Shown: positions 17,866-40,430 of the stretch, one piece after another | How the letters are laid out: each line of letters opens with the position of its first letter | Numbering within the stretch: position 1 is the stretch's first letter | Source: Candidatus Eiseniibacteriota bacterium | Lineage (GTDB): Bacteria > Eisenbacteria > RBG-16-71-46 > DASYSL01 | NCBI GenBank assembly: GCA_031431875.1 | Contig: JANPEF010000147.1 | Span: forward strand, 1-56,219 | Length of the DNA stretch: 56,219 bases | Reading direction: 5' to 3' | Program-made: the position numbers and the translations under genes | Notes under the pieces: model-generated | Seen by the model: only the letters and a program-made list of their open reading frames with translations | Database searches by the model: none | What the model was told of the DNA's origin: nothing

Positions 17866-20800
17866 GCGCGCGGCCCGAGCTGGATCGTCACCGCGTGCTC
17901 CCGCCCGTCGCGCGCCAGCGGAATGCGTGCCGCGCCGTCGACGATGCGGGTCGGCGACCCGTCGACCGCGGCGCGCGACACGATCTCGGACGCGGCCGAC
18001 TTGCCCGAGCCGGCGGCCGTCAGGCCACCCCGGACGTCGATCACGTAGGTCGTGCCATCGGGCAGCCGGCGGCGCACCGTGTAGCCCGGCCAGTCGTCGG
18101 GGATGCATGGCTTGACGACCAGCGTGTCGCCGCCGTCGATGGTCACGCCGAGCACGGACTCGAGGGCGACGCGCAGCAGCCAGCCGGCCGAGCCCGTGTA
18201 CCACGTCCAGCCGCCGCGGCCCACGTGCGGCTCGGCGCCGTAGACGTCGGCGGCGACCACATAGGGCTCGACCTGGTAGGTCGCGACCTGCGCGGGTGTC
18301 TGGGAGTGGCTCACGGGGCTCAGCAGTTCCAGGAGATGCGCGGCGCGGTCGCGGCGGCCGCGCTCGGCAAACGCGCGCACGACCCACAACGCGGCATGAG
18401 TGTACTGGCCACCGTTCTCACGGACGCCGCGGACGTAGCCCTTGATATATCCAGGGTCATTCGGGGTGTTCTCGAAGGGCGGGTCGAGGAGGCGGATGAT
18501 GCCGGCTTCGTCGGAGATCAGGTGCTCCTCGACCGCGTCAAGCGCGCTCTCCGCGCGCGGAGCTGGCGCAGTATCGGCGATCGTGGCCCACGCCTGGGCG
18601 AGCGCGTCGATCCGGCACTCGTCGCCCTGGGCGGTGCCCAGCGGCGTGCCGTCGTCGTAGTAGCCACGGCGGTACCACGCGCCGTCCCAGCCGGCGCTCT
18701 CGAGTGCTGCGACGAGTCGAACTCGCTCCAGGTCGTAGCGCTCGGCGCGTGCAAGGTCGCCGCGGGCGCGCACGAGCGGCGTGAAGTCCGTGAGCACGGC
18801 ATGGAGGAACATCGCCATCCACGTGCTCTCGCCCTTGCCGTCGTGGCCGACGCGGTTCATGCCGTCGTTCCAGTCGCCGCAGCCGAACAGCGGCAGCCCG
18901 TGGGCGCCATTGCCGACCGTGAGCGAGCGCTCGATCGCGCGCAGGCAGTGCTCGTACACGCTGGCGCTGGCCGTCGAGATGGTCGGCGCGAGGAACACCT
19001 CCTGCTCGCCGGGCTCCAGCTCGCGCGCAACCACGAAAGGGGCAACCTCGTCGAGCACGGTCGCGTCGCCGGTCGCAGCGACATACGTGGCCGCGAGCCA
19101 CGGCAGCCACAGGAGATCGTCGGCGAAGCGCGTGCGCAGGCCGCGCGCATCGGGCGGGTGCCACCAGTGGAGCACGTCGCCGGTCTCGAACTGGTGGCGC
19201 GCATTGCGCACGATCTGGGCGCGGAACATCGCCGGGTCCGAGTGCAGCAGCGCCGAGGAATCCTGCAGCTGGTCGCGGAAGCCGTAGGCCCCGCCCGACT
19301 GGGCGAACGCGGTGCGCCCCCACAGCCGGCAGGCGATCGTCTGGTACAGCGCCCAGCCATTGATCATGCGATCGAGCGCGGGCGCGGGAGTCGTCACCTG
19401 CACGGCGCCGACGAGCGTCTCCCAGAAAGTGGTCATCGCGGCGAGCGCGGCCTCGGTCGCGCCCGGGGTGCGGTAATGCGCCAGCAGCGCATCTGCGGCG
19501 GCGCGGTCGAAGGCGTCACCGAAGACAATCGTCCACGTGGCGGACGCGCCGGGTGCCAGCATGAAGCCCACCGCCTGGGCAAAACACGGATCCAGGTCGT
19601 CGCCGGTGCGGCCGTCGAATCCGGCCGGATCCGTGAGCCCCCGCGGCGCGGCGAGCCCCTCCCCCGGGCCACCGAGGAACGCGGCCCGGTCGCAGGTGAA
19701 CGCGTTCGCACTGGCGCCCGCCTCGCCGATCAGCGCGGTGAACGCGACGCGGCCGCCGTAGAGCGCATCCCCCGGGCGACGCGCGTACAGCGCCGTGCCG
19801 TCGGACGCCGCCTCGGTCACGACTCCACCGGTGGCGTGCGTGGGCAGGCCGCCGAGCACGAGCTGCTGATACGACGCCAGAACCAGGTGGCGCGCAGCGC
19901 CGCCAGGATTCGTCACTGTCACCCGCACGATCTTGACCGGATCATGCCGCGGGACGAACACCTCGGCATTGCACGACAGCCCCAGCGCGGTGCGCCGGAA
20001 GCGCGTGACACCGAAGCCATGCCGGGCTTCGCACGGATCGCCCGTGGCACCGGGCGCGAGCGGGCCGACCGGACCGGGCAAGGGCGAGGCGATCGCGCCG
20101 TCGATGTCGTCGCGCAGCCACAGCGCCTCGCCGGGCGGATCGAGCAGCGCGTCGTTCGACCACGGCGAGAGGCGGCGTTCGCGGCTGTTCACGCTCCACG
20201 TCGCACCCGCGCCGGTCTCGCTGACGAGCCCGCCGAAGTCCTCGCTGGCGATCACGTTGATCCACGGCTGGGGCGGCCGCGTCGCCGCGAGCCCGCCGCC
20301 GAAGCGCACGACGTACTCGCGACCGGCCGAGGCGAAGCCACCGCTGCCGTTCCAGAACTCGAGTGGTTCCGCCGCGAACGCGGCCTCGAGCGCGGCGGCG
20401 GCGGTGCGGTCGCGGTCATGGTTCGCCGAAGGCGAAACGCTCGACTCATCCGCGAGGACGGGCGCAGCCGCAATCTCGACCACACCATCGACCGGCGCGG
20501 CCTCGCCGGCAAAGCCGATCGCACCCAAGCCGGCAACCTCATCGCGCCGCGCGTTACCGCGCGAGCGGGCGCCCGAGAGGATCGAGGCGCCGCCCTCACC
20601 GCGGGCGCGAGCAAGTGCTGCGAGTACGGCCGCGCGATCCTCACCCGCCACAAGCGCGAACGTCAGAGTCACCGGCGCGCCGGCCTTGACCGTGCGGGTG
20701 ACGCGCAGCGCCAGCACGGGATCGAGCACGTTGCCGACGGTCGACGACCACGGCGCGGCACTCGCCAGGGCCCGCGGCCGCGTGCGATCGGGCACGCGGC

Positions 20801-21452
20801 CCAGGAACTTCGCGCGATCGCTCTCGAACTCGACGGCACGATCCTCGAGCACCGCCAGTCCCATCCACGGGAACTTCTCGCCCGCGCCGCGTGGGCGGCG
20901 CCGCGCCAGCAGCGCGCCGTCGGCCGCCGACCACTCGGTCTGGACGAACAAGCGCGAGAACGCCGGATGCGACGCGTCGGCGGCGCGATCGTGTAGCACG
21001 ACCTCGAGCGCCACGGCAATCTCGATCGTGCGCGCGGCCGGGCCGTCGTGCGACAGCGTGATGCGGCGGATCTCGAGCGGCAGCGTGGGGTGCACGGCGA
21101 CCGCCAGGCGCGCTTCGATCTCGTGCTCCACCCGCGAGAACTCGACCGCACCCGGTCCGAAGCGCGCGCGCACGGCGCCGGTACGCGGCGCGCACGGCGC
21201 GGCCGCGACCGACCACAGCGCATCGCGTTCGCGGTCGACGAGCCAGACGAGGAAGCCGTCGCCGTCGACGATCGGGTCGCCGGCCCAGCGTGTCAGTGCA
21301 TGGGCGCCGAACGTCGACAGCCCCGTCCCGCCCGCGGTGACGAGCGTGGAGTACCCCCCGTTCGACAACAGCGCGGCGACCGGTGGCGCGGGGCGCCGAA
21401 GCAACGAGGCCGCGCCGGCGAGGGCAGGGACAGGCTCAGGGACAACGCTCAT
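17862..21452 (-). CDS. GH94 glycoside phosphorylase resembling the C-terminal region of cyclic beta-1,2-glucan synthase
   Basis: LLSNGGY, PPQPWINVIA, QSGGAYGFRDQLQD, GDWNDGMNRVG, ENGGQYTHAA, GRGGWTWYTGSAGW; no signal peptide. Confidence 0.88.
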   Translation of the reverse strand: MSVVPEPVPALAGAASLLRRPAPPVAALLSNGGYSTLVTAGGTGLSTFGAHALTRWAGDPIVDGDGFLVWLVDRERDALWSVAAAPCAPRTGAVRARFGPGAVEFSRVEHEIEARLAVAVHPTLPLEIRRITLSHDGPAARTIEIAVALEVVLHDRAADASHPAFSRLFVQTEWSAADGALLARRRPRGAGEKFPWMGLAVLEDRAVEFESDRAKFLGRVPDRTRPRALASAAPWSSTVGNVLDPVLALRVTRTVKAGAPVTLTFALVAGEDRAAVLAALARARGEGGASILSGARSRGNARRDEVAGLGAIGFAGEAAPVDGVVEIAAAPVLADESSVSPSANHDRDRTAAAALEAAFAAEPLEFWNGSGGFASAGREYVVRFGGGLAATRPPQPWINVIASEDFGGLVSETGAGATWSVNSRERRLSPWSNDALLDPPGEALWLRDDIDGAIASPLPGPVGPLAPGATGDPCEARHGFGVTRFRRTALGLSCNAEVFVPRHDPVKIVRVTVTNPGGAARHLVLASYQQLVLGGLPTHATGGVVTEAASDGTALYARRPGDALYGGRVAFTALIGEAGASANAFTCDRAAFLGGPGEGLAAPRGLTDPAGFDGRTGDDLDPCFAQAVGFMLAPGASATWTIVFGDAFDRAAADALLAHYRTPGATEAALAAMTTFWETLVGAVQVTTPAPALDRMINGWALYQTIACRLWGRTAFAQSGGAYGFRDQLQDSSALLHSDPAMFRAQIVRNARHQFETGDVLHWWHPPDARGLRTRFADDLLWLPWLAATYVAATGDATVLDEVAPFVVARELEPGEQEVFLAPTISTASASVYEHCLRAIERSLTVGNGAHGLPLFGCGDWNDGMNRVGHDGKGESTWMAMFLHAVLTDFTPLVRARGDLARAERYDLERVRLVAALESAGWDGAWYRRGYYDDGTPLGTAQGDECRIDALAQAWATIADTAPAPRAESALDAVEEHLISDEAGIIRLLDPPFENTPNDPGYIKGYVRGVRENGGQYTHAALWVVRAFAERGRRDRAAHLLELLSPVSHSQTPAQVATYQVEPYVVAADVYGAEPHVGRGGWTWYTGSAGWLLRVALESVLGVTIDGGDTLVVKPCIPDDWPGYTVRRRLPDGTTYVIDVRGGLTAAGSGKSAASEIVSRAAVDGSPTRIVDGAARIPLARDGREHAVTIQLGPRA

Positions 21453-23086
21453 CGCACCTTCACGAGGCGAGCCACGGTCGAGGACTCGCCCATCGTGAGC
21501 CGCAGGTGATAGAACCCGGGAGCCAGGCGCGAGCCGTCGACCGGCAGTGCCTGTTCCCCGGCAGCACGGACCTCGTCGCCCAGGTGCGCGACGATGCGAC
21601 CCCGCGCATCGATCAGGTCGGCGCGCACGCGACCGGCGGCGGCGAGGCGGAAGCGCACGACGGTGCGATCGCGGAACGGCGTCGGCTCGACCGCGCGCAG
21701 CATGATCGCCGGGGCGCCCACGCCGACCGCATCATCGCCTACGTCGGTCGTGATCGGCGTGAAGCCCGCTCGCGCGAGGCCGTTCGCAAGATCCGGATCA
21801 TTGCTGAGACGCCGCCACACGGCCTCGCTACGGTAGTTCTCGATCATGAGCACGATCGGGCCCTGGTCGATGCCCAGGACGTCCTGGCCGGTCCAGCCGA
21901 CCGTGGGATTGAACGCGTCGGTGAATCCGTACGGACCCCACAGCGAACCGCGCCAGTTGTCCCACAGGTTATGCATCAGCGGCACCACGACCTCGGGCGC
22001 GAACGGTAGCGACGAGATGCCCGCAGTCGGCGTGATCGTGCCATTCTCGCTCCAGGCCGGCGGCGCACCGTGCGCCGCGTAGCCGGAAGGATCGTCCGAG
22101 GCAGTGAGTCCCCACAGGCTGTCCGAGTACGCTTCCCAGCCCAGCGGGTTGTCGATGCAGTAGGCTCGTTGCGCGAGCGTGGCGCGCCGCGAGTTCTCGA
22201 AGTATGTGATGCCGCGGAATTGCATGTAGCCGTCCTGGATGCCGCGGAAATCCAGCCAGCAGTGCGAGTACTGGTGCCCGAACAGCGGCGGGAAGACGAC
22301 GTAGCTCTGGCCGTAATGCGTCTGCCAAGAGTAACCGTTGAGCCACGTGCCCCACAGCATCGGGATCGGATGGGTCGGCGACCCGAGCGCCATGATATAG
22401 AGGATCATGGCCTCGTTGTAGCCGACCCAGTGGCCGTACCCGCCGAACCCGGTGCCGGGCTTCCATCCCATGTAGATTCCGGCTGTGAGGTTTCGCGTGA
22501 AGTTCCAGTCGCAGCGCCGCCAGATCGAATCGGCCAGCGCGCGGATCTGGACCTCCTCCGGATGGAGTCCGCTGAAGTACTGCTTCGTGTCGAGGATGCC
22601 GGCCATGAGTAGCGCGGTGTCGATCGTCGACAGCTCCGAGTTCCACGTGCGCCTGGCCGTATTCATGTCGAGCCAGTGATAGAACAGGCCCTTGTAGCCG
22701 ATCATGCCGTCGACGGCCGTGCCCTGCGGCCCGCTCCAGAACGTGTCGAGCGTGGTGAGCACGCGCGAGCGCACGGCCGCGCGATCGAGCCAGCCGCGGT
22801 CGACGCCGATGCACAGCGCCGACAGGCCGAAGCCGGTCGAGGCGATGCTGCTCACGGAGCCCGGTGTGTCGCGGTCCTTGATCAGCCCGTTGGCCGGATT
22901 CGCCTCGTTCCAGAAGTAGAGGACGCCCGCGTGCTGCACGGTGTCGAGCAGCGCCTCGGTCGTGAGCGCGTGCGCGGGCCGGGCCGCGGGCAGAGCGAGA
23001 GCGCCGAGAACGGCGATGGCGACGACGGCGAGTGCGAGCCCGCGCCGGAGCACGGACGGCGGATGGATGCTGGATGCGTGGCCCAT
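21449..23086 (-). CDS. Secreted GH144-like (PF10091) glucanase with C-terminal T9SS/FlgD-like domain
   Basis: GGAGG RBS before the ATG at 23086; SSIASTGFGL, ELSTIDTALL, GYNEAMILY, PLFGHQYS, LGIDQGP; tail EPTPF...IDARGR...PGFYHLRL. Confidence 0.85.
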   Translation of the reverse strand: MGHASSIHPPSVLRRGLALAVVAIAVLGALALPAARPAHALTTEALLDTVQHAGVLYFWNEANPANGLIKDRDTPGSVSSIASTGFGLSALCIGVDRGWLDRAAVRSRVLTTLDTFWSGPQGTAVDGMIGYKGLFYHWLDMNTARRTWNSELSTIDTALLMAGILDTKQYFSGLHPEEVQIRALADSIWRRCDWNFTRNLTAGIYMGWKPGTGFGGYGHWVGYNEAMILYIMALGSPTHPIPMLWGTWLNGYSWQTHYGQSYVVFPPLFGHQYSHCWLDFRGIQDGYMQFRGITYFENSRRATLAQRAYCIDNPLGWEAYSDSLWGLTASDDPSGYAAHGAPPAWSENGTITPTAGISSLPFAPEVVVPLMHNLWDNWRGSLWGPYGFTDAFNPTVGWTGQDVLGIDQGPIVLMIENYRSEAVWRRLSNDPDLANGLARAGFTPITTDVGDDAVGVGAPAIMLRAVEPTPFRDRTVVRFRLAAAGRVRADLIDARGRIVAHLGDEVRAAGEQALPVDGSRLAPGFYHLRLTMGESSTVARLVKVR

Positions 23087-23109: not shown

Positions 23110-24147
23110 TCAGAACTCGATGCCCAGTGTCATGCGGTGCGCCACCTCGAGACGGCCCATGTCGGCATAGGCGTAGTCGAAGCGGAACCCCAGCGCGTCG
23201 TTCAGGTCCCCGCGGACGCCGGCGCCCAGCGTGAGGCCACCCTCGGCGTCCTGCTTGAACAGGTTCTGCCAGCCGGCGCGAAACGCGAACAGCGCCTTGT
23301 ACGCGTACTCCCCGCCCAGGTTCAGGCTCTCGCTATTATCGCTCGGGTGGAGCGCGTCGAGCGCAAAGCGCAGGCGGTTCCGCGGATCGATCCGCACCGG
23401 CAGGCTGACGCCGAAGCGCATCAGCACCGGGACGGAGTGCGATTCGGTGAAGATCTCGGCGGGCAGCGCCGGATTGTCTCCATTCACATCCGGATCCTGG
23501 TCGTAGGTCACGCGCAGGTCACGCCCGGAGAACTTGCCGCCGACCCCCAGGTTCGAGAGGCTCGCGCCCAGCTCGAGCCCGCCCTCGCTCACGCGGTAGA
23601 GCGTGCCGAGGTGGAACACGGCGGTCGAGAGCGTGCTGTTCCAGATCCGTTCCTGCAGCCATGAAGCTTGCACGCCAATCGTGAAGCGGTCGGTGATCGG
23701 CCGGCCCCAACCGATTCCGACGGCGAGGTCCGTCACGTTGAAGCGTTCGCCCGTACCCAGGGGCTGGCTCACGGTTCGAACTTCGATGTCGCCCGAGCCG
23801 AGCTGCGTGACGCTGCCAACCAGCGCGCCGGCTCCCCCCAGCGGAAATGCCGCGACGACATGGTTGTAGTCGATCCCGGCGATCCACTCGGCGTGCGACA
23901 GCCCGACCCCGCTCTCGCTGATGCGCCCGATCGCCGCCGGGTTGTAGTACGTCGCGTCGAGGCCGAGGCCGAGCGACACGCCGGCGTTACCCATGGCGAC
24001 GATACGGGCGCTCGGCTCGATGAGGAGGAACGTGCCGACCGTCGTGCCGGTCTTGCTCTGCGCGCCGGCGTCGCCGGCCGACAGCAGGCTGGTACCGACG
24101 AGCAGCCCGACGACGGCCGCCAGCCGATTCCCGGGACGCCTGATCAC
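23110..24147 (-). CDS. PorV/PorQ-family outer-membrane beta-barrel protein
   Basis: KTGTT..TFLLIEPSARIVAMGNA, YYNPAAI, SHAEWIAG, RFDYAY; C-terminal Phe. Confidence 0.8.
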   Translation of the reverse strand: MIRRPGNRLAAVVGLLVGTSLLSAGDAGAQSKTGTTVGTFLLIEPSARIVAMGNAGVSLGLGLDATYYNPAAIGRISESGVGLSHAEWIAGIDYNHVVAAFPLGGAGALVGSVTQLGSGDIEVRTVSQPLGTGERFNVTDLAVGIGWGRPITDRFTIGVQASWLQERIWNSTLSTAVFHLGTLYRVSEGGLELGASLSNLGVGGKFSGRDLRVTYDQDPDVNGDNPALPAEIFTESHSVPVLMRFGVSLPVRIDPRNRLRFALDALHPSDNSESLNLGGEYAYKALFAFRAGWQNLFKQDAEGGLTLGAGVRGDLNDALGFRFDYAYADMGRLEVAHRMTLGIEF

Positions 24148-27100
24148 TTGATGACCGCGAACTTGCCGATGGCCGGTTCGGTGCCGGGAGCTTCCACCTG
24201 GAAGACGTACAGACCCGGGGCGCAGTCGAGATTGTCCTTCGTGCGCAGATCCCAGGCGACGTAGCCATCGAGCGAACCGTCGTGCCGCAACGTCTGGACG
24301 AGTTCACCCCGTACCGTGTAGATGCGAACCACCGCACTGCGCGGCACGGCGCGAAACTCGAGGCGTCGCACGCCGCGCCCCGAGGTGGCGAAGCGCGCCG
24401 GCTCGAACGAGGCCGCACCGACGTACGGATTGGGCACGACGTACGGGGCATTCGTCACCGCGACGGCACCCGCGGCGCCCACCTTCTCGCCCGCGGTCGT
24501 GAACGTGAACACGTCACTCGGCGTGATCGGCAGGGTGATTCGCGCCGTGAACGTGTCGCCGAGTCCGGGCGAGCGGAGCGGCCCCACCGCCGTGGTGTCG
24601 AGCTCGACACGCCATGTTTGTTGGGGTGTCGTCGGGGTTGCGGGCAAGTAGTTCACGATGTCGATGCGTTCATCGAGCCGGGACAGCGTGCCGTTCGCGT
24701 CGATATCACGGAAGACGAAGTCGAGCTTGCGCTCTCCCGTCGGCTCGAGCGCGAACACCTCGAAGCGTGCGGGTCGCGCCGGGGCGGGAAAGACCGCGAG
24801 CCCGGTGTCCTTCACGACATCGGAGAAGCGGATCTCGAAGTCAACGGGATAGCCCGGCCGGCGCAGGTTTGCATCGAGCACGGGAAGGTACGTAACCTTG
24901 AGTCCCGGATTGGTTGGCGGGCCCGGCGCGAAGCCCGAGTTCGCCGCGTCGAATCGCACGACCGAATCGGCGGCGACGATGGGCAGGAGCCCCGCGGCGA
25001 CCGGCCCGATGCCTGCGCCCGCAAAGTCGCGGCCGGTCGCGAACAGGGTGTCGGCCGCGGAACTGTCCACCAGCGAGTACGTCTCGGCGCGAATGCTGTC
25101 GGGAGATGAGTTGGCGAAGATCACCTTGAAGAGGTGGCCATCGGGCACGAGCGCCGAGTTCACGACATCGACCACGACGTCGCCACGACCGACCCCCACC
25201 GTGTGGGTCGCGCTCGTCACATCGGCGCGTACATAGCCCGGGACCCTCGGGTTCGGCCGGACGCGCACGGCGTTCTTCGGCAAGTTGACGCCGCCACGCG
25301 ACGTGCGCGAGACGGTGATCGCGTTCTCCGACGGATAGAAGGCGAGCGAGTCCGGGCCTGGCTCATACCCGTAGTCATACGCCGTGACCCCGTAGTAGTA
25401 CTCCTGCCCGTTGGTCACCGTGGTGTCGGTCCACGTATGTGTGATTCCGGTCTCGTCGCCCACCCAGTACGACACCCCGTCGACCGTACGCTGCGAGTAG
25501 CCGCGCCGGTCATCGATCAGGTCGAACTGGGCGATCGGCCGGCCGTTGCCCGACAAGGTGCCCGAACCCGTGCCGGTCGAAATCACCTGGGGATCGAGGA
25601 AATCCGGCTCGGTCGAGCGGTAGATCCGATAGCCCTCGAAATCGTTCACGTTGCTCACCGGGTCGATACCGCGCTCGGCCACATCGTCCCACGACAGCCG
25701 CACGAAACCGTCCGCTGCCTCGGCCGTCAGCGTGGGCATCGGCGGGGGCACGGCGAACTGGTAGTTCGCGTCGTAGATCTGCTGCACGGTCAGCACGTTC
25801 GTGCGCAGGTCCCCGAGCGTGGCACCAAAGGCGAGCGCCAGACTGAAGCGCTCGGTCTGCCCGGCCTTGAGCGGGAACGGTCCCGAGGCAAACAGGAATC
25901 CGATGTTGTAGTTCGAGGCCACCGGCGGGTCGAAGCGCGCCTGCGGATCCGGGTTGGTGAACTGGGTGTACAGCTTCTCCGGCCAGTCCTGGGATTCGGT
26001 GAAGAACAGAATGTTGTCGAAGGACGGATCCGGATTACCGGCCCCGGCCTTGATGCGGTTCATCTTGAAGCCGGTGAGCCCGATCTGGTCGCTCTCATTG
26101 AGGTCCGTGCCATCGAAGTTCGGTTCGCCCGCGCTTGGCTGGCCATCGCCTTCGCCGGTGTCGCCGGTTCCGGCCACTCCGTCGCCGCCCACGTCGTGGA
26201 ACTCGGCGGTCCAGTCGAGGTCCTCGTCGCCGGTCCACCAGCGGCCAGCGCGATAGGCGGGGCGACCCTCGAGCGGCCCGTACGCGGCCTCGAACTTCGC
26301 CAGGTCGTAGCGGAAGGCCACCTCGGCGCGAATCGCCTCAGTCCCGTCGACGGGGGAGCCCTCCCCCGAGTCGCGTCGCTCGCGAATCATGCCATCATCG
26401 TCGTCGTCGATCTCGTTGAACGGATTTCCCGGCGTCTCGAGGTAGGCGTAGCCGAGGTAGCCGGTCTTCCCGCAGTTGCCCGACAGGTCACGGCCGTGTC
26501 CGAAGCGGTCGAACGTGTAGACCAGATTGAGTCGCGATGACAGGTCGAAGGACGCATTGTCGTCGTCGGACTCGAAGATGCCGTCACAGGACAGGGCCGA
26601 GCCGCCAACGCCCGCATCCATGTAGAGGCCGAAGATGATGTCTTCGTAGTCCGTGGTCGACTCGTTGGTGATGTCGTAGTGCCAGAAGATGACATTTCCG
26701 GCCTGCGGGTTCGCCCACTGGAAGCCCCGGACCGCGACCCGAAGCCCCAGCCCGCGCCGCGTCGTGTCGCGAGTGTCGGGGAAGTAGTCCCACCCGTCAT
26801 AGTACTGGTCATCCATGACGGTGAAGCTCTCCTGATCGGCTGCGGGGCGCTTGCCGAAGTAGCCGTTCCAGCTTCCCGGCCAGCCGGGATCGTCCGGATC
26901 GAGCCGCTTGTCGGGCCACTTTCGGGGCCACGTCTTCGCGTCGGTGCTGATGGCCGGCGAGCGGTCGATGTTGACGCTCGAGCTGTCCTGGAAGTAGCCC
27001 GGCCGCGGCTCGAAGCGCATGGTCAACCCGGTGTTGGGGCTGATTCCCTGCCGCTCGCGGAATCCCGTTTCCATGATGTAGGCCTCGAGCTTGTTGCGCT

Positions 27101-27404
27101 GCGTGATCTTGGTCAACACGAACGGTGTGATCCCGTCGCCGTAGTTCATGCCGCTGCCCTTCGGCACTTCGACCGAGTGGAAGGTCGACAGGTCCACGCC
27201 CTGCGGATCGGCCGGGTAGTCGCCGACCATGCCGAAGTTCGTGAACGAGGTGCGAATGCGGGCCGCGTCATGCGTGCCCTTGCGCTCGGCGTCGACGGTG
27301 CCGCGCTTGTCCGCGGAATCCGGGAGCGGCACCTGCGCACCGGCCCGCGCGGGGAGGAGGGCGAGCAGCAGGGCTGCGATCGCAAGGGCGCGGGGGGCAC
27401 TCAC
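24144..27404 (-). CDS. Large secreted hypothetical protein (1086 aa) with acidic repeats, an FN3-like segment and a C-terminal CTD-like domain
   Basis: GTG start with GGAGG RBS overlapping the TBDR stop; signal peptide; VRLSWDD..FEGYRIYRS..NGQEYYYGVTAYD; tail VVPNPY...IYTVRGELV...WDLRT...GLYVF...GKFAVIK. Confidence 0.85.
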   Translation of the reverse strand: MSAPRALAIAALLLALLPARAGAQVPLPDSADKRGTVDAERKGTHDAARIRTSFTNFGMVGDYPADPQGVDLSTFHSVEVPKGSGMNYGDGITPFVLTKITQRNKLEAYIMETGFRERQGISPNTGLTMRFEPRPGYFQDSSSVNIDRSPAISTDAKTWPRKWPDKRLDPDDPGWPGSWNGYFGKRPAADQESFTVMDDQYYDGWDYFPDTRDTTRRGLGLRVAVRGFQWANPQAGNVIFWHYDITNESTTDYEDIIFGLYMDAGVGGSALSCDGIFESDDDNASFDLSSRLNLVYTFDRFGHGRDLSGNCGKTGYLGYAYLETPGNPFNEIDDDDDGMIRERRDSGEGSPVDGTEAIRAEVAFRYDLAKFEAAYGPLEGRPAYRAGRWWTGDEDLDWTAEFHDVGGDGVAGTGDTGEGDGQPSAGEPNFDGTDLNESDQIGLTGFKMNRIKAGAGNPDPSFDNILFFTESQDWPEKLYTQFTNPDPQARFDPPVASNYNIGFLFASGPFPLKAGQTERFSLALAFGATLGDLRTNVLTVQQIYDANYQFAVPPPMPTLTAEAADGFVRLSWDDVAERGIDPVSNVNDFEGYRIYRSTEPDFLDPQVISTGTGSGTLSGNGRPIAQFDLIDDRRGYSQRTVDGVSYWVGDETGITHTWTDTTVTNGQEYYYGVTAYDYGYEPGPDSLAFYPSENAITVSRTSRGGVNLPKNAVRVRPNPRVPGYVRADVTSATHTVGVGRGDVVVDVVNSALVPDGHLFKVIFANSSPDSIRAETYSLVDSSAADTLFATGRDFAGAGIGPVAAGLLPIVAADSVVRFDAANSGFAPGPPTNPGLKVTYLPVLDANLRRPGYPVDFEIRFSDVVKDTGLAVFPAPARPARFEVFALEPTGERKLDFVFRDIDANGTLSRLDERIDIVNYLPATPTTPQQTWRVELDTTAVGPLRSPGLGDTFTARITLPITPSDVFTFTTAGEKVGAAGAVAVTNAPYVVPNPYVGAASFEPARFATSGRGVRRLEFRAVPRSAVVRIYTVRGELVQTLRHDGSLDGYVAWDLRTKDNLDCAPGLYVFQVEAPGTEPAIGKFAVIK

Positions 27405-30082
27405 GGCTTGCCTCCGCCGCTCCACGGCCCGGCAAGGCTCAGTCCGAACTCGATGCGACGCGACGAGTAGAACAGGCTCGGATTGCTCAAGGCGAACTGG
27501 TCTCCTGCGGGGTTGAGCGAGTAGTAAGGGCTACCGGTCGTGGCGAACACCGCCCCGTTGAAGTAGCGCGTGTCGAACAGGTTGAAGATGCGCAGGAACG
27601 CGCGGAACGGCGCCCCGCCCGCCCGCAGCGTCTTCTCACCCCGGAGATCGACGACGGCGCCGGCGGGTTTCCGACCCGAGTTCGCCTCCTGCCCGTAGCC
27701 GAAGCCGCCGACCACGTTCGGAGTGTACGGCTGGCCGCTGCCGATGCGCACGATCGTCGAGGCTGCGAAGTCGTCGGGACGCGCCAGGTTCGCGGTCAGG
27801 TTGAGGGTGTGGCGCTGATCCCAGTTGAGCGGGATGCTGCGCGGCCGCGGATCCTCGCCCGCCGCCGCACGGGTGGCGGTCTCGCGCGGATCGCTCGAGT
27901 TGCCGCTCGCCTCCTGCCAGGTGTAGTCGAGCGTCATGCCGAACAGTCCGCGCGGCCGCAGGTCAAAGGCCACCGTGAAGCCCAGCACGCTGCCGAAATC
28001 GATATTGGTCAGTCGCGCGTACTCCGCGCTGCTGTAGGTCTCGATGAACTCGACGCCGAGCAGGTCGCGGATGTCCTTGTAGAACACCGTGAGGTCCACG
28101 CCAAGGTCCTCGCTCACCGCCTGCTTGTATCCGCCCTCGTACTGGATCGTCAGTTCCGGTCCGACGTCGGGGTTGCCGAGCACGCCGACCTTCGCCGAGC
28201 CCTCGGGCGTCGCCTGCAATCCGCTCAGGATCGAGTAGTCTGCGTTTGCAAAAATCTCGCCGATCGGCGGGAACTGGGCGAAGTGCCCGTACGCGAAGTG
28301 CGCCGCTGCGCGCGGGCCGGTCGGCCACGACACGCCGATGCGCGGCGACAGGATCCACTTCGGCGTCGTGGGGCGCGGCGGCGCGGTCGGGCTGCCGGAG
28401 ATGTCGTTCGTCGGATTCGACAGGTCGCCCGGCACCGTCGACCGGGCATCGAACAGGTCGAGCCGGAGCCCGGTACGGGCCGTGAGGTCGTTCCATTCGA
28501 GCTGATTCTGCGCGAACGTCGAAGCGATCACGGGAAAGTAGAGCGCAGGCGCATAGAGGCGCTTCTCAGGATCCTCGCTCACGCGCACGAGCTGCTCCTC
28601 CCCGTCGACCACCGGATAGGTGAGGTAGCCGAGGGTCCCGAACTCGACGCGCGGCAACTGCAGCTCGAGCCCGGCCTTGAACTGGTTCGTCGCCGAGGCC
28701 TGGCGCACGTAGGAGCCCTTGAGCATGAACGTGTTCGTGTTCTGGTGGAATCGCGCCGCACTGACCCCGGCGTAGGCAATTCCATCCACGAGCTCGAGTT
28801 TGCCCGCGGAGTCGTAGCCCGAATCGTAGAAGTCCTCGAAGGTTCGATCAATGTAATCGAAGTAATTCTGGCGCACACTCAGGTTGTAGAACGACTTCGC
28901 GTTCAGCACGTGGTTGACGTCGAGGCCGTGCACGATCGAGAACGTGTGCTGCTTCGAACGGCCGTCGGGCATGATGGAGAATGACCAGTCCGCACTCTGC
29001 GCGTCGATCTCGTTGACGATCGCCTGGTAGCTGAACTCGACGTTCTTCAGGGAGCGGTTCGACACCTTCGCCACGCCCGACCGCTCGCGCGATGTGCCGA
29101 GCGATACTTCGGCGCCACTGCCCGTGGTCTCGCTGACCGCGGTGACGCGGTTGTAGTCGGTCGGCTCGAACAGGTCGATGCCGCGCACCCAGTCGTCGAA
29201 CCCGGCGGCGCGCGCACTCAGCAGGAAGAGCGTCTGCGGCAGCGGCGTCGGCCCCGTGAGGCCGAGCTGGAGACTGCGCGAATCGAACGGCCGAAACTCG
29301 TATTCGGCGACCCGGCGCTCGGGACCGGTGGGGAAGACGAATCCGCCGCCGTAGGCCTCGGCATTCCACGCGAACTTCTGACTCCCCCGCTTGAGGACGG
29401 CGTTGACGACGCCGCTCTGGGCCTGGCCGTACTCGGCGTCGAAGGTGCCACTGATGACCTGCACTTCCTCCAGTAACGAGCGGTCGAGGCGCAGCGTCGA
29501 CTTGTTGTCGTACGCATTGTTCACCGAGACTCCGTCGACCTGGTACTGCACCTCGCCGATGCGCCCGCCGCGGAAGTGCCCGTCGACGACGCCGGCCTGG
29601 AGGTTCACGACGTCGTCCAGACTCTGCACCGGAAGCATCGCAATCTCGGCCGACGACACGCTGACCAGCGAGCTGGTCTTCCCGACGTCGACGACCGCCC
29701 GCGTTGAACGGACGACGACCTCCTTCATCTCGAGCGCTGCCTCGACGAGCAGCACATCGAGGCGCGTCGTCAGGTCGGACGACACGGCGACGCCGGTCAT
29801 CATGACCGGCCCGAAGCCCAGCAGCGCAAAGCGCACGTCGTACGATCCCGGGGGCAGGTTGAGGATCGAGTAGCGGCCCTCGTCATCGGTCACCGCCCCG
29901 GTCCGGGCCGCGGGCACGGCGACGTTCACGCCGACGAGCGGACGCTTCTGCGCGTCGAGCACGCGACCGGCGATCTTGCCCGTCGTGCCCGCCCACGCGT
30001 CGCGCGCGCCCACGCTGCCGCCGGCCGCCCCCACGAACGTGAGGACGGCGGCGAGCGCGATGTTAGTGAGCCGTCGGATCAC
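27401..30082 (-). CDS. TonB-dependent receptor with N-terminal carboxypeptidase-regulatory-like domain
   Basis: GTTGKIAGRV, plug HFRGGR..EVQYQVDG, ISGTFDAEYGQAQSGVVN; barrel motifs SPRIGVSWP, FYKDIRDL, WDQRHT. Confidence 0.9.
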   Translation of the reverse strand: MIRRLTNIALAAVLTFVGAAGGSVGARDAWAGTTGKIAGRVLDAQKRPLVGVNVAVPAARTGAVTDDEGRYSILNLPPGSYDVRFALLGFGPVMMTGVAVSSDLTTRLDVLLVEAALEMKEVVVRSTRAVVDVGKTSSLVSVSSAEIAMLPVQSLDDVVNLQAGVVDGHFRGGRIGEVQYQVDGVSVNNAYDNKSTLRLDRSLLEEVQVISGTFDAEYGQAQSGVVNAVLKRGSQKFAWNAEAYGGGFVFPTGPERRVAEYEFRPFDSRSLQLGLTGPTPLPQTLFLLSARAAGFDDWVRGIDLFEPTDYNRVTAVSETTGSGAEVSLGTSRERSGVAKVSNRSLKNVEFSYQAIVNEIDAQSADWSFSIMPDGRSKQHTFSIVHGLDVNHVLNAKSFYNLSVRQNYFDYIDRTFEDFYDSGYDSAGKLELVDGIAYAGVSAARFHQNTNTFMLKGSYVRQASATNQFKAGLELQLPRVEFGTLGYLTYPVVDGEEQLVRVSEDPEKRLYAPALYFPVIASTFAQNQLEWNDLTARTGLRLDLFDARSTVPGDLSNPTNDISGSPTAPPRPTTPKWILSPRIGVSWPTGPRAAAHFAYGHFAQFPPIGEIFANADYSILSGLQATPEGSAKVGVLGNPDVGPELTIQYEGGYKQAVSEDLGVDLTVFYKDIRDLLGVEFIETYSSAEYARLTNIDFGSVLGFTVAFDLRPRGLFGMTLDYTWQEASGNSSDPRETATRAAAGEDPRPRSIPLNWDQRHTLNLTANLARPDDFAASTIVRIGSGQPYTPNVVGGFGYGQEANSGRKPAGAVVDLRGEKTLRAGGAPFRAFLRIFNLFDTRYFNGAVFATTGSPYYSLNPAGDQFALSNPSLFYSSRRIEFGLSLAGPWSGGGKP

Positions 30083-31965
30083 TGCACGAACGTGAGCTTG
30101 CCGGACAGCGTCGTCCGCTCGACTCCGCTCACCGGATCAGTGACCCGCAGGCGGTAGAGCACGAGACCCGGGCCCTCGGCGCGCGGCACCACGATGTGTC
30201 CCTCGCCGGCGGCGCGCACGCCCAGGTTGTGCTCCATCAGCTTGCGCCCGGTCACGTCGTAGGTCTCGAGCAACAGGCGGCTCGCCTGCGCGAGCTGGAT
30301 ACGTACCGTCGCGTTCGAGCGCACGGGATTCGGGGAAGCGCCGAGAATCGTGTAAGCGCCGGGAGCGCCGGGCGGAGGGTCGCCCACCGCGACGACAGCG
30401 GTCGGATCGGCGTAGGCCCAGACCGGACAGCAGGTCGCCTCGCGCTCGCGCATGTACCAGGTGCGAGTGGCATAGCTGTCGGTCCACGGGGTGAACGAAT
30501 CGCCGTCGTTGTAGATCATGCCGAGGTGGACGATGCCGTCGCCCAGACCGGCCGGATAGCCGAGCTTGGTGAGATCGACTCCCAGCTCGGCCGTATACCC
30601 GACGTCAGGCGAAAGCCCAAGCGTGTCCAGCGTGGTGCCCGGCTTGAGCAGCAGCGCGACCTGGGCGCCCGCGAGGGAGTCGCGCAGGTACGGCAGGTAA
30701 TTCCCCGCCAGGGCGGTGCCCGTCGCGGACACCTGGAACGACAGCGTGCGGCCGAGTAACTGGCGGTCGGAGCCACGCAGCACGTTCTCGTTGAGGAAGA
30801 CGGCGAGACCGTCTTCGCGACCGACTTCGACGAGGTTCTGGACGACCTGATCGTCGACGTCGAACCCGAAATACAGCCAGTCGTTCTTGACCACGTACTT
30901 CACGCGGACCTCGCCTGGATCGATGATCGCGGCGAGCCCGCCGTTGACCGTGGGCTGGTACTGCCCGGAGCGGTGCGCCGCCACCCCTCCATAGCTTGCG
31001 CGCAGCGCGTCGTCGCCGTAGCGCAGCGTGATCTGGGGGGCCTGCGCCCACACGGCGTCCCCCAGATTGCCGTCGATGACCGGCGCGGCGAGTGCTCCGG
31101 CGTTGGGCAGGATCAGTTCTGGTCCGATGACCGGCACGGTGCCCGAGGCGACGGTGACACCCGGCCGGGCATGGATGCGCACTTCGCCGTACCAGGCAGC
31201 GTTGCCCCACGGATCCTGCCACCACACACGGTTGGCGCTGAACTTCGGGGGGTCGTTCGGCCACCTCCAGTCGCAGTCGTAGATCGAGCCAGTCCACTCG
31301 ATGATGTCGCCGCCGGGTTGCGTGATGTCGTACCCCATGACCCCCAGGTCGAAGCGCATCTCCATGATGTAACCCGTGTCGAGCAAGGTGTCCGAGTTGG
31401 CGGTGCCGAGCACCCTGGTCACCGCATCCCACGCCGCGATCTGTTCCGGCGTGCGCGGCGAACCGACCGGTTCCTCGGCCCACAGCCCCTTGAACGCCGG
31501 GCCCTGCCCGATGGGCGGCGTGCCGAATTGACTCTCGTACCACCAGCCGTACAGGTACTCCGAATTCGGCTTGGGCGCACCGGTCGAGGCGTGGTTCTTG
31601 AGATTCATGAGCAGGCCGTCGAACCGGTTGAAGATCTCCGAACCGCCGATCGAATTGTCGCGCACGAAGGCACCCAGGTAGAGCTGGTTTCCCACGGTGA
31701 GGAACTTGAGCGTCGCGTGCGTCGGATCGATCGGGGTGGCGCCGGATTCGATCTTCCAGCCGCTGCCCGGCACGCCCGAGTCGATGCCGAAGCGGATGAC
31801 CGTCGACTCGGCAAGTGCCCAGGCTGGCTCGTTCAGGTTGCCGTCGAGGGTGATCGAAGCGCCGTTGGTGGAGCGGGCCCAGATTGCGTCCTTGCGTTCC
31901 GCGTGCGCGGCGCCGGCGGCGAGCAGAGCCGTCGCAGCGATGGCGAACAGGATGAGCTTCTTCAT
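30079..31965 (-). CDS. Secreted protein with two CBM9/DOMON-like sugar-binding domains and a T9SS-like CTD
   Basis: CAGGAG RBS, MKKLILF signal peptide; repeated ITLDGNLNEPAW / PVIDGNLGDAVW; tail ASPNP...YDVTGRKL. Confidence 0.75.
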   Translation of the reverse strand: MKKLILFAIAATALLAAGAAHAERKDAIWARSTNGASITLDGNLNEPAWALAESTVIRFGIDSGVPGSGWKIESGATPIDPTHATLKFLTVGNQLYLGAFVRDNSIGGSEIFNRFDGLLMNLKNHASTGAPKPNSEYLYGWWYESQFGTPPIGQGPAFKGLWAEEPVGSPRTPEQIAAWDAVTRVLGTANSDTLLDTGYIMEMRFDLGVMGYDITQPGGDIIEWTGSIYDCDWRWPNDPPKFSANRVWWQDPWGNAAWYGEVRIHARPGVTVASGTVPVIGPELILPNAGALAAPVIDGNLGDAVWAQAPQITLRYGDDALRASYGGVAAHRSGQYQPTVNGGLAAIIDPGEVRVKYVVKNDWLYFGFDVDDQVVQNLVEVGREDGLAVFLNENVLRGSDRQLLGRTLSFQVSATGTALAGNYLPYLRDSLAGAQVALLLKPGTTLDTLGLSPDVGYTAELGVDLTKLGYPAGLGDGIVHLGMIYNDGDSFTPWTDSYATRTWYMREREATCCPVWAYADPTAVVAVGDPPPGAPGAYTILGASPNPVRSNATVRIQLAQASRLLLETYDVTGRKLMEHNLGVRAAGEGHIVVPRAEGPGLVLYRLRVTDPVSGVERTTLSGKLTFVQ

Positions 31966-33011
31966 GATGAGGATCTCCTGGCCCGTGGCGTGGCCGATCG
32001 CGCTTCGCTGCCGGCGCGCTCCGATCCGCACGAGCGGCGGATCACGAGCATGGCCGGAGTGACCTGATGGCGGCGCTTCAAGGCTGCGCCGTTCTTCCCG
32101 TCGACCAGCCTCTCCACGGCGCGGGCGCCAAGATCGAGCAGGTCGACGTGGACGGTGGTGAGCGGCGGATTAAGATAGCGGGCCATGGCAATGTCATCGA
32201 AACCGACGATGGCCATGTCCTCGGGAACGCGAAGCCCCGCCTGGGCAAGCGCGCTCATCGCCCCGATCGCCATGTAGTCATTGGCGACGAAGATCGCCGT
32301 CGGCCGCGGCCGCAGCGCAAGGAGCCGCGCCACCGCCGAATAGCCGGACGGTTCGGTGAAATCGCCCGCGGCGACAAAGGCCGGATCGGGCTTGAGACCG
32401 CGCGCCGCGAGCGCCTTCCGCCAGCCCTCGAGGCGCTGCCGGGCGTCGGCGTTCTGGGTCGGCCCGGCGATCATGGCAATGAGTCTGTGCCCAAGTTCGA
32501 GCAGGTGCGTGACCGCGGCCACGGCTCCGCCGGCATTGTCAATCGAGATCGAGTCGCAGCCGATCGCGCGCACGCCCGGATCGAGCAGGACCAGCGGAAA
32601 GCCCGGACCCGCAGCCTTGACCAGCACGGCGGTGTCCACGTCGGGCGCCATGACGATGAGCCCTTCGATCCGCCCGCGCATCGCGCGCAGCGCGCCGACG
32701 AGATCGTCGCCGTTGGCATGCGAGCTCGAGACGAGCAGGTGCAGGCCGTCGCGGCGTGCCCGCAGATCGATCCCGCGGAGCACTTCGGAAAAGAATTCAC
32801 CGTACAGATCGGGGAGGAGCACGCCAAGCGCATGGGTCCGGCTGGTGATCAGGCTGCGCGCGGTCTCGTTCGGCGTGTAGTCGAGGCGAGTCGCAGCGTC
32901 CTTGACCCGCGCACGAGTCTCCGACTTCACCCGCACATTGTCGTTCAGGACGCGCGAGACGGTCGCGACCGAGACGCCCGCGGCGCGGGCGACATCACGA
33001 ATAGTGGCCAT
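31962..33011 (-). CDS. LacI-family transcriptional regulator
   Basis: ATIRDVARAAGVSVATVSRVLN helix-turn-helix; PTAIFVAND, VPEDMAIVGFDD, PPLTTV. Confidence 0.96.
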   Translation of the reverse strand: MATIRDVARAAGVSVATVSRVLNDNVRVKSETRARVKDAATRLDYTPNETARSLITSRTHALGVLLPDLYGEFFSEVLRGIDLRARRDGLHLLVSSSHANGDDLVGALRAMRGRIEGLIVMAPDVDTAVLVKAAGPGFPLVLLDPGVRAIGCDSISIDNAGGAVAAVTHLLELGHRLIAMIAGPTQNADARQRLEGWRKALAARGLKPDPAFVAAGDFTEPSGYSAVARLLALRPRPTAIFVANDYMAIGAMSALAQAGLRVPEDMAIVGFDDIAMARYLNPPLTTVHVDLLDLGARAVERLVDGKNGAALKRRHQVTPAMLVIRRSCGSERAGSEARSATPRARRSSS

Positions 33012-33126: not shown

Positions 33127-33924
33127 CTAGCGATAGTCGGCCTTGATCTTGCCCCAGGTCGACGCTGCGGCCGGGACCGGGCTCGCGTCGTAGCAGATGT
33201 TCGACCACTCAGTCCGCAGATTGATCGTCGGGCCCTGACCACCCCACGGAATCTGCATGTAGCCGCCGGCGTTCGCGGGATTGAGGATGCCCCACAGGCC
33301 GCGCGGCGGATCCTGGGTCGGGTTGCCCTCGTCGAAGGCGAGCGGGCCACTCGAGAACGTGCCGTTCGAGTTCGTCAGCGTGTAGACGATGGTCCCCGGG
33401 CTGGCGGCAGAGAGACCGTTCGGCTTGTAGTCGATCGCGAGCGTGACCGACGTGCCCTTGACGTAGGTCTGGAGGTGCGCGCCGGTGAACGAGTAGAACG
33501 GCAGGCGACCGCCGAAGCAGGCGATCTCGCCCGAAAACGTATTGAGCATGAACACGCCGTCGTTCTCGAGCGACCACCACGGCGAAAGACGCAGCCCCGC
33601 TTCGCCGTTACCCGAGCCCGAAACGAGAACCGTGGCGCAGAATGAGAACTGATCGCCGTTCAGAAAGTCGACCGCATTGATGTTGTCGGTCGACAAGCTC
33701 CACGCGTGCCGGTTGGCACCGCCGGAACAGCCGGCCGCGGCGTCATCGATGATGACGCTGGCGAAGTTATTGTCGATCACGGTAAGGCTGGAGCCATTAC
33801 AGTCGTTGTAGACGCGGGGGATCACGACGGCACTGTTGGCGGCCGGGGTGGCCGAGGCAACGCTGGCGAACGCGATGGTGGCGAGAGCGAGCGTAGTAGA
33901 GAAGAGGTAACGCTTCGGATTCAT
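33127..33924 (-). CDS. Secreted hypothetical protein with C-terminal TWGxxK motif (265 aa)
   Basis: AGGAGG RBS before the ATG at 33924; signal peptide ending ASA-T; C-terminus SPVPAAASTWGKIKADYR. Confidence 0.85.
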   Translation of the reverse strand: MNPKRYLFSTTLALATIAFASVASATPAANSAVVIPRVYNDCNGSSLTVIDNNFASVIIDDAAAGCSGGANRHAWSLSTDNINAVDFLNGDQFSFCATVLVSGSGNGEAGLRLSPWWSLENDGVFMLNTFSGEIACFGGRLPFYSFTGAHLQTYVKGTSVTLAIDYKPNGLSAASPGTIVYTLTNSNGTFSSGPLAFDEGNPTQDPPRGLWGILNPANAGGYMQIPWGGQGPTINLRTEWSNICYDASPVPAAASTWGKIKADYR

Positions 33925-34362: not shown

Positions 34363-34539
34363 TCAGGCTGCCGGGTCTGGCCCGCCTTCCGGGCGATCGG
34401 CATCATCGTCGAGGATCGCCCGCATTGCGGGCGTCGTCACGTCGTCGAACTGACCCCGGCGTGCCGCCCAGAGAAACGCGAGGATCGCGGCCAGGACGAG
34501 CCCGAGCGCCGCCGGAACGAGGATGTAGAGAACACTCAC
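34363..34539 (-). CDS. ccoS: cbb3 oxidase maturation protein CcoS/FixS
   Basis: VLYILVP...FLWAARRGQFDD..TPAMRAILDD. Confidence 0.9.
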   Translation of the reverse strand: MSVLYILVPAALGLVLAAILAFLWAARRGQFDDVTTPAMRAILDDDADRPEGGPDPAA

Positions 34540-37010: not shown

Positions 37011-37728
37011 GGGCAGCGGGATCGGGTGCGGTGGCACTCGCATCCAGGGTGCGGGCGGAGACCGCCGGCGCGTCGAGCCGCCCGGCCAGCGTCAGTGCGC
37101 CGAGCACGAGCACGGCGAGCGCGGTCAGCGCCGGCAGGCGCCGGGACAACGGACCGAACGCGCCGCGTGCCACGAGGCCGACCGCGGCAAGGGCCGGCAG
37201 GGTGCCCGCCCAGAAGACCGCCATGACCAGTGCGCCCGGCAGCGGCGCGCCGGTGCCGGCCGCGGTGGCGACGAACGCGTAGAGCCAGCCGCAGGGCAGC
37301 AGCGTCGTGGCCAGCCCGAGCACGAACGCGCGTTCGATCGGTGGGCGCTTCGCGACCCCGCGCAACGCCGCAGCGACCGGTCCGCCGGCACCCGCCGCGC
37401 CGCGGCCCAGGCCGGCCGACCACTTCACGCCGAACGCCTCGAGCAGGCGTGCGCCGCCCCACAGCACCATGAGCGCGCCGGCCACGATCGTCGCGCCACG
37501 GGCCACGCCGACAAGCGCGCCCGCGTGCGTGACGCCGGCGCCGATCGCCCCCGCGAGCAGGCCGAGCGCGACGTAGCTGAGTAGCCGTCCGCCGTGATAC
37601 GCGACGTGGGCGCGCGTGCGGGCGCGGCCGTCCGCCGAGTAGAAGCAGACGAACCCGCCGCACATCCCGGCGCAGTGCGCGCTGCCCAGCAGGCTGGCCG
37701 CAAGCACGCTGCCGACGAGCGCGATCAC
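36994..37728 (-). CDS. DsbD_2/TauE-like membrane protein of the cbb3 assembly cluster
   Basis: GSAHCAGMCGG, YHGGRLLSY, LLPCGWLY, FWAGTLP. Confidence 0.85.
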   Translation of the reverse strand: MIALVGSVLAASLLGSAHCAGMCGGFVCFYSADGRARTRAHVAYHGGRLLSYVALGLLAGAIGAGVTHAGALVGVARGATIVAGALMVLWGGARLLEAFGVKWSAGLGRGAAGAGGPVAAALRGVAKRPPIERAFVLGLATTLLPCGWLYAFVATAAGTGAPLPGALVMAVFWAGTLPALAAVGLVARGAFGPLSRRLPALTALAVLVLGALTLAGRLDAPAVSARTLDASATAPDPAAHDCCR

Positions 37729-40236: not shown

Positions 40237-40430
40237 CACTGGCCTCCATTGCGCGGCTTGGTCGCGCTCTCGTCGTCGAACGGCAGGCGGCTGGCCTGGT
40301 CCATTTCACGCTTCGCTCCCGGGCGAAAGGTCGCGATGGCGACCGCGACAAACGCCAGGAGGAACAGGATGAGGGCGATCTCCGCGTAACGGGAGAGTCC
40401 GGCGTGGCTCATGATTTCGGAAAGTCTCAT
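40236..40430 (-). CDS. ccoQ: cbb3 oxidase subunit CcoQ
   Basis: 64 aa, single TM helix, ASRLPFDD; between ccoNO and ccoP. Confidence 0.8.
   Translation of the reverse strand: MRLSEIMSHAGLSRYAEIALILFLLAFVAVAIATFRPGAKREMDQASRLPFDDESATKPRNGGQ

Follow-up and report, generated by a model that had tools for sequence, protein, structure and literature searches.

Prediction of polysaccharide utilization loci begins from susCD gene pairs (PMC5753385), and these genes have been reported to be scarce in the carbohydrate-active enzyme (CAZyme) clusters of Ignavibacteriales (PMC10576277). In Porphyromonas gingivalis, the secreted proteins PorZ and PorU retain their tails and are kept at the cell surface by PorQ and PorV (PMC5562754, PMC10947112). 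The alginate locus of Rhodothermus marinus lists tonB, hypA (2,181 nt, a protein with a type A sorting domain belonging to the type IX secretion system, or T9SS) and hypB (PorV/PorQ family) (PMC9530828), and the IaSGT beta-1,2-glucan cluster of Ignavibacterium album contains two GH144 genes, a GH94 gene, a Sop-binding ATP-binding cassette (ABC) protein and a TonB-dependent receptor (TBDR) (PMC8861115). We describe a three-gene set, hereafter the trio, in a 56,219-nt stretch (the window; contig JANPEF010000147.1, our C147) of a Candidatus Eiseniibacteriota genome (GCA_031431875.1; completeness 98.45%). On its minus strand, the trio encodes a TBDR (27401–30082), a large secreted partner protein (24144–27404) and an outer-membrane barrel of the PorV/PorQ family (23110–24147).

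Conservation and composition of the trio

The trio is real and widespread, and as an outer-membrane module it is apparently uncharacterized. A genome scan gave at least 571 relatives, the best 80 of which were kept for a locus survey; their lineages include Eisenbacteria, Krumholzibacteria, Ignavibacteria, Calditrichota, Rhodothermales, Kryptoniota, Marinimicrobia, Stahlbacteria and others. A contig end truncated thirteen of these loci on one side, leaving 67 that were assessable for three-gene order. Receptor, partner and barrel followed one another directly in 65 of the 67 (42/42 close modules, taken as 51% or more, and 23/25 distant ones), and both exceptions have a barrel nearby. The synteny that a sequence-only reading of this DNA had proposed to look for, across candidate phyla and the FCB (Fibrobacterota–Chlorobiota–Bacteroidota) group, thus holds in several FCB-group phyla. 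The partner lies directly after the receptor in 74 of 75 assessable loci, whereas a CBM9-like binder and the enzymes of the surrounding locus (both described below) shift position or drop out between loci; in one locus cut by a contig end (L071), the barrel precedes the partner. In a sample of 151 genomes from one large phylum, 66 had strong homologues, as did 53 of 101 genomes sampled from the phylum of this genome. We found no functional description of the trio in the full-text literature, where coverage of subscription papers is poor.

Three gene trees of 56 complete modules had most strong splits in common (29/36, 31/36 and 31/36), and in all three the 36 close modules formed one clade, apart from the paralogues of this genome. 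These trees show that the module is inherited as a unit; their concordance does not demonstrate contact between the proteins. Paired-alignment covariation, with alignments too shallow for the purpose (62 and 52 pairs), did not rise above shuffled pairing, with maximum z-scores of 7.3 against 6.4–8.2 and of 7.4 against 6.8–8.2.

Further modules were found in the same genome on contigs C145, C106 and C23/C75, the last of which is divided between contigs and has a different gene order and an extra gene inserted, together with three orphan partners and one orphan receptor. The orphan receptor (C82:47047–49377) and one orphan partner (C153:57261–59948) both have their nearest counterpart in the C106 module (318 bits; 46% identity) and may pair in trans, sharing the C106 barrel. 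The C145 (14304–18090) and C106 (61292–71260) modules are flanked by a gene for a GWxTD-domain protein and another small barrel-like gene, and no adjacent CAZymes were seen. An isolated 82-aa fragment matching residues 240–318 of the large protein (C139:21570–21818) is probably a remnant.

The open reading frames of the trio and both of its junctions were as first described from the sequence: receptor and partner, and partner and barrel, share 4-nt GTGA overlaps, the partner starting at the GTG inside GTGA, and the same overlap is found upstream of the receptor. By our own gene calls, 597 of 2,262 same-strand neighbour pairs (26%) of this 70% GC genome overlap by 4 nt; because such overlaps are so common here, they add little, and we rejected GTGA overlap as a special signal. 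A promoter and terminator scan gave nothing above chance.

The receptor (893 aa) has a signal peptide, a CarboxypepD_reg-like N-terminal extension and a plug, the latter two matched in Pfam, and its AlphaFold2 (AF2) model (pLDDT 86, pTM 0.86) comprises the plug and a barrel of 22 strands. It is a TBDR, as had been read from the sequence, and not a SusC: against the SusC model TIGR04056 it scored 55.5 bits (cut-off 368), with the match confined to residues 36–160. Its listed structural neighbours are non-SusC TBDRs (siderophore, vitamin B12 and pyrroloquinoline quinone receptors), with no SusC entry among them, which describes the list and is not an exclusion.

The partner (1,086 aa) belongs to an unnamed family and carries an SPI-type signal without a lipobox cysteine, its only cysteines being at 273, 311 and 1061. 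It has no Pfam match and no Pfam, NCBIfam or PDB sequence match to a named glycoside hydrolase, and no common family was found among its 30 nearest Atlas clusters; its relatives comprise 1,857 of 8,000 scored candidates and 3,209 50%-clusters at E ≤ 0.001. In the AF2 model (pLDDT 86.3, pTM 0.81, from a 68-sequence alignment), an N-terminal, galactose-mutarotase-like beta-supersandwich (approximately residues 35–550; 25755–27302, minus strand), supported by structure matches and the conservation profile, is followed by a linker helix, an FN3-like domain (approximately residues 551–725; 25230–25754, minus strand), two further beta domains (Ig-like) and the tail. The FN3-like segment, already noticed in the sequence, was recovered by an Fn3-like profile match (3mpc, E 0.027), by Foldseek matches to FN3 arrays and by DSSP. 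An Asp/Gly-rich insertion in the supersandwich (approximately residues 321–442; 26079–26444, minus strand) includes the motifs DDDDDG (333–338) and DVGGDG (404–409), whose loops we presume, by motif likeness, to bind Ca; it is kept in the near family and mostly missing from the far paralogues examined. DDDDDG had been quoted in the earlier reading, as had VVPNPY (989–994) and GKFAVIK (at the end of the protein), and all are present.

The best structural matches of the supersandwich were the N-terminal domains of dextran dextrinase, glucoamylase and GH94 phosphorylases (Z 15–20, rmsd 3–4 Å, 240–280 residues aligned). By VIA, Z was 19.7 (rmsd 3.2, 268 aligned) for dextran dextrinase 9ju0 and 18.9 for glucoamylase 1lf6, with lower values for SOGP 5h3z (15.1), GH174 9k1g (14.9) and mutarotase 3mwx (13.8); the C-terminal domains were barely probed by this whole-model search. 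We take the matched N-terminal domains of GH15/GH94/GH65-type enzymes to be non-catalytic in role. The model has no helical catalytic barrel and no TPR-type helical array, and the predicted fold is of a carbohydrate-enzyme accessory type lacking that catalytic barrel. Judged by its all-beta model, together with the absence of a SusD Pfam match and of a lipobox cysteine, the partner is not a SusD, in line with the first reading; its listed structural matches, a list and not an exclusion, contain no SusD. Nor did Pfam detect any SusD-type lipoprotein in the locus, and PF07980 (SusD) had no match in the genome, while the control matched in Bacteroides thetaiotaomicron.

The presence of galactose mutarotases (Z 13.8) and a GH174 endo-1,3-fucanase (Z 14.9) among the structural matches would fit a partner that itself acts as an enzyme at the surface, as a hydrolase, lyase or epimerase of a new type built on a supersandwich, trimming substrate at the receptor mouth. 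Residues D119, E120 and E218, reported as essential in Fun174A (PMC11943901), lie within the range aligned to 8jd7 (68–377), if the numbering is the same. In the partner, D190, D199, D263, D281 and D282 are kept even in far paralogues, and H45, H76 and H242 are invariant in the close group, whereas E192, R226, Q229 and E323 are not kept in the C145 paralogue or in a Bacteroidia homologue. The preference of the structure search for non-catalytic domains, and the missing helical catalytic barrel, also argue against an enzyme; two GH144 enzymes are already in the locus, and one scaffold would need to accept glucans, mannans, peptidoglycan and peptides as substrates. We consider an enzymatic partner quite improbable.

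Probable export route and anchoring of the tail

A T9SS-like export route had been proposed for the partner, and the genome encodes SprA (440.7, cut-off 200), PorU (552, cut-off 420) with an adjacent PorV-like barrel, and 100 matches to the type-A tail model TIGR04183. The search for SprA and PorK/L/M/N that accompanied this proposal gave a divided answer, with SprA over its cut-off and GldK/L/M/N not detected. Across 50 of the 80 module-bearing genomes, SprA was over cut-off in 49 and GldM in none; GldK, GldL and GldN passed their cut-offs in 0 of 16 genomes with a module, among them this one, compared with 4 of 4 controls, a result that leaves room for very divergent homologues. With SprA, PorU and PorV-family barrels, about 100 type-A tails and no detectable GldK/L/M/N, the genome apparently has a T9SS that lacks the known motor and ring.

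Among the 151 genomes of the one large phylum, 37 had GldM and 66 had a strong partner match (E ≤ 1e-50), with an overlap of 0; as the two groups are lineages, this split is not an independent test. Four GldM-positive genomes of this sample had weak partner matches. One GldM-positive genome (G130) has a distant full trio (L116:7896–16867; receptor 1,271 aa, partner 1,242 aa, barrel 366 aa), so the module also reaches motor-bearing lineages, and its strict restriction to motor-less genomes was rejected.

The absence of GldK/L/M/N, and with them of a known energy source for export, would suit a trio that acts as an assembly or secretion accessory, with the large protein chaperoning or shielding the receptor, or with the receptor as a PorF-like secretion component. 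Parallels have been published: a FadL-family barrel underpins an extracellular canopy next to BamA in Flavobacterium johnsoniae (PMC12611786), and a TBDR co-purified with PorV in Cytophaga hutchinsonii (PMC8564354). Such a role sits poorly with several divergent copies per genome, with subfamilies that track catabolic gene content and with the position of the trio under a LacI regulator in a catabolic operon, and we regard it as highly improbable.

The partner ends in a variant T9SS C-terminal domain (CTD; VVPNPY...GKFAVIK, approximately residues 986–1086; 24147–24449, minus strand), for which profile matches were weak: PorU tail 6za2 (E 0.015), PorZ tail 5m11 (E 0.035) and the PorZ model NF052228 (E 0.049). 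The type-A model TIGR04183 did not match it, and the tails of the C145 and C61 paralogues barely passed (25.5 and 24.7, against 23). A profile made from the tail set apart seven proteins of the genome (55–136 bits) from the rest (36 or less), alongside about 160 ordinary type-A-like tails; it also found type-A tails, weakly. From these comparisons, the variant tail would be homologous to type-A CTDs but a distinct subtype. Variant-tail proteins at C61:91729–97405, C153:57261–62296 and C75:48895–50352 adjoin mutually similar, unnamed lipoprotein-like genes (46%, C61 versus C153).

The barrel (345 aa) scored 176.6 bits against the PorV/PorQ family model NF033709 (cut-off 90) and had a profile match to PorV 6h3i_F (E 1e-20), upholding its description as PorV-like. 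It fell far below the equivalog cut-offs for PorV (NF033710, 62.2 versus 250), PorQ (NF033711, 66.1 versus 220) and PorV2. In a quick tree of the PorV family (41 rows), all 26 sampled module barrels and one from a GldM-positive genome formed a single clade (SH-like approximate likelihood-ratio test 99), apart from PorV, PorQ and PorV2 and specific to such modules; the additional barrel turned out to be that of the distant G130 trio. As the genome has a separate porU–porV pair on C58, whose PorV-like barrel is the better PorV candidate, the module barrel is an extra. The notion of a dedicated barrel is supported by this clade and by its co-divergence with the module, though the pairing is not strict, as orphan partners and the two-partner locus L081 (below) illustrate.

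As precedent, the sequence-only reading had offered type-B CTDs with their PorP/SprF barrels. That reading was rejected, neither the type-B tail models (TIGR04131/CHU_C) nor the PorP/SprF models having matched the large protein or the barrel; genome-wide searches with these models were blank, but their controls were silent too. Because the module barrels fall in a clade separate from PorV, PorQ and PorV2, the nearer precedent is PorZ–PorQ, or PorU–PorV. We consider it likely that the tail is held by the co-encoded barrel.

Proposed role of the trio in a glycan locus

The trio is in what its neighbours indicate to be a beta-1,2-glucan utilization locus (two GH144 genes, GH94 and a Lin1841-like ABC binder), and the glycan locus of the first reading stands: CAZymes and a regulator for one glycan (GH144 twice, GH94, GH1, ABC and LacI genes) surround the three genes. 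Among loci of at least 12 kb, 38 of the 39 close ones have GH144/GH94 genes, compared with 2 of the 19 distant ones; the neighbours of distant modules (16 loci, 58 selected proteins) included GH9, GH16, GH2, GH3, GH130 and GH20 proteins, an amidase, an M23 peptidase and an OPT transporter. In the conservation profile of the partner, 45 subfamily-specific invariant positions fell in residues 24–550 and 20 in the remainder. Strict pairing with the receptor, substrate-tracking subfamilies and subfamily-specific residues concentrated in the supersandwich point to substrate capture by the tethered protein on behalf of the receptor. On balance we slightly favour the trio as the outer-membrane core of this locus, in which a surface partner, tethered by the barrel, captures substrate for the receptor; partner–receptor contact and glycan binding are parts of this model that we infer.

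In the proposed mechanism, the large protein would use Sec to cross the inner membrane and SprA to cross the outer one, as its signal peptide, its tail and the genome content suggest. The co-encoded barrel, and not the housekeeping PorV, would then take up the variant tail, which, by homology and by the PorZ–PorQ precedent, would go uncleaved by PorU and stay bound as a permanent surface anchor. The one-to-one linkage and the fold point to a tethered supersandwich that would work with its cognate receptor, capturing oligosaccharides freed by the secreted GH144 and delivering them to the channel, the part that SusD plays for SusC. Periplasmic sophoro-oligosaccharides would, by homology, go to the Lin1841-like ABC system and be broken down by GH94 and GH1.

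Several observations weigh against this mechanism. The supersandwich fold also occurs in enzymes (mutarotases, and the GH174 fucanase, whose match covers 243 of 449 residues), the tail matches to PorU and PorZ are weak (E 0.015–0.05), a second likely surface binder, the CBM9-like protein, is already present in the locus, and the module also adjoins peptide and peptidoglycan genes. SusD is present in 12 of the 50 module-bearing genomes, and strict mutual exclusion between the two was rejected. Three of the seven variant-tail proteins of this genome (C61, C153 and the second C75 copy) have no adjacent receptor and barrel, and one locus (L081:4091–15659) combines a single receptor with two partners in tandem, a SurA-like gene and a single barrel, so 'dedicated' cannot be taken strictly. 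Synteny and co-divergence are also to be expected if the genes are simply inherited together in one operon, and the related loci are not independent.

The same three orphan copies, away from any receptor, would be at home in a scheme in which the large protein is barrel-anchored and glycan-binding but a free-standing surface binder, like SusE/F, without a stable receptor complex. A search of proteins of 1,902–5,000 aa found no fusion of partner and receptor, weak evidence in the same direction. Against this scheme, the partner keeps its place directly after the receptor, whereas the CBM9-like binder and the enzymes move or drop out; the common affinity of the orphan receptor and the C153 orphan partner to the C106 module also speaks for receptor pairing. 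We think a free-standing binder unlikely.

The substrate-capture model can be taken further. The trio could form a stable three-protein import machine with a second, independently evolved kind of lid: a supersandwich protein, secreted by the T9SS and retaining its tail, that a private PorV-clade barrel clamps over the TonB receptor. Built by SprA without a recognizable GldKLMN motor, this machine could be the main alternative to SusC/SusD across FCB-group phyla outside Bacteroidia, for glycans and other polymers. We put this extension forward tentatively, as a possibility falling somewhat short of likely.

Upstream of the trio lie a LacI-family regulator (31962–33011, minus strand), assigned by profile search, and a 628-aa secreted, CBM9-like protein with a type-A-like tail (30079–31965, minus strand), assigned from Atlas neighbours and the locus survey. 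The Atlas neighbours of the latter (0.98–0.99) carry PF18962 (64–90%) and PF06452 (29–44%); it is present in 36 of the 39 close loci of at least 12 kb and is probably a surface glycan binder. On the other side, all on the minus strand, are a GH144-type endo-beta-1,2-glucanase with a type-A-like tail (21449–23086; PF10091, endo-beta-1,2-glucanase 5gzh at E 8e-59, TIGR04183 weak), a GH94 gene between both GH144 genes (17862–21452; Pfam, 8rf9 at E 2.5e-237), a second GH144-type protein (16402–17859; PF10091) and a Lin1841-like ABC sugar-binding protein with two permeases (13384–16405; Lin1841 5ysb at E 6e-68), without an ATPase gene in the locus. They are followed by a 1,019-aa protein of no named family (10313–13372), which recurs in many beta-1,2-glucan loci; with only a weak oligosaccharide-amylase match (TIGR01577, E 0.004) and no PDB sequence match, it is a candidate new enzyme. 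A GH1 beta-glucosidase (8004–9416, plus strand) was over the cut-off of TIGR03356.

Elsewhere in the window, 34536–42625 holds an ordinary cbb3-type oxidase cluster with a fused CcoN–CcoO and FixG/H/I/S. Secreted-looking proteins at 1559–2227 and 33127–33924, and at C139:20037–21560 of the genome, have in common a short tail, (T/S)WG-x-x-K-x-x-Y, which is unlike T9SS tails and is possibly another sorting signal.

Comparison with known systems

If the trio is the uptake core in Ignavibacteriales, it would be a marker for loci and substrates in many uncultured polymer degraders. A role would follow for many unexplained PorV/PorQ-family paralogues, T9SS would be linked to nutrient import, and the question would be posed of how SprA exports cargo without a recognizable GldKLMN motor. 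Cultured hosts are available in R. marinus and I. album; in an I. album metagenome-assembled genome (locus L030), the receptor and partner have 47% and 57% identity to those described here.

Like the SusC/SusD core, the trio has a TBDR with a CarboxypepD_reg-like extension and, directly after it, a single partner gene; it sits centrally in a regulated CAZyme locus and occurs in several substrate-specific copies per genome. Its receptor, however, fails the SusC model, a third gene, for the barrel, is added to the unit, and the partner is an all-beta protein of 1,086 aa with an SPI signal and a T9SS-type tail, whereas SusD is a helical lipoprotein. With PorZ–PorQ and PorU–PorV, in which a secreted protein is held by its own PorV-family barrel (PMC5562754, PMC10947112), the trio shares an atypical tail that is weakly closest to theirs. 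Its barrel, by contrast, lies below both cut-offs and in a separate clade, the body of its partner is unrelated to PorZ or PorU, and the pair is tied to an importer and not to cargo processing. Type-B/PorP–SprF units are not known to include a receptor gene, and the trio has no type-B tail or PorP/SprF match. The likeness lies in a co-encoded, substrate-specific barrel, and in type-B systems, too, orphans can use a barrel encoded elsewhere (PMC12618676).

Two published loci resemble the trio and its setting. The R. marinus alginate locus has the same gene order, hypA being likened to the partner by order and annotation, and in the accessible part of that report the genes are listed as hypothetical, without a proposed function (PMC9530828). 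The I. album IaSGT cluster shares two GH144 genes, GH94, an ABC binder and a TBDR with the locus described here; the accessible text mentions the TBDR and does not discuss a partner or barrel (PMC8861115). As we picture it, the trio would work like a SusC/SusD core and be anchored like PorZ–PorQ, yet it is neither of these, nor is it a type-B/PorP pair.

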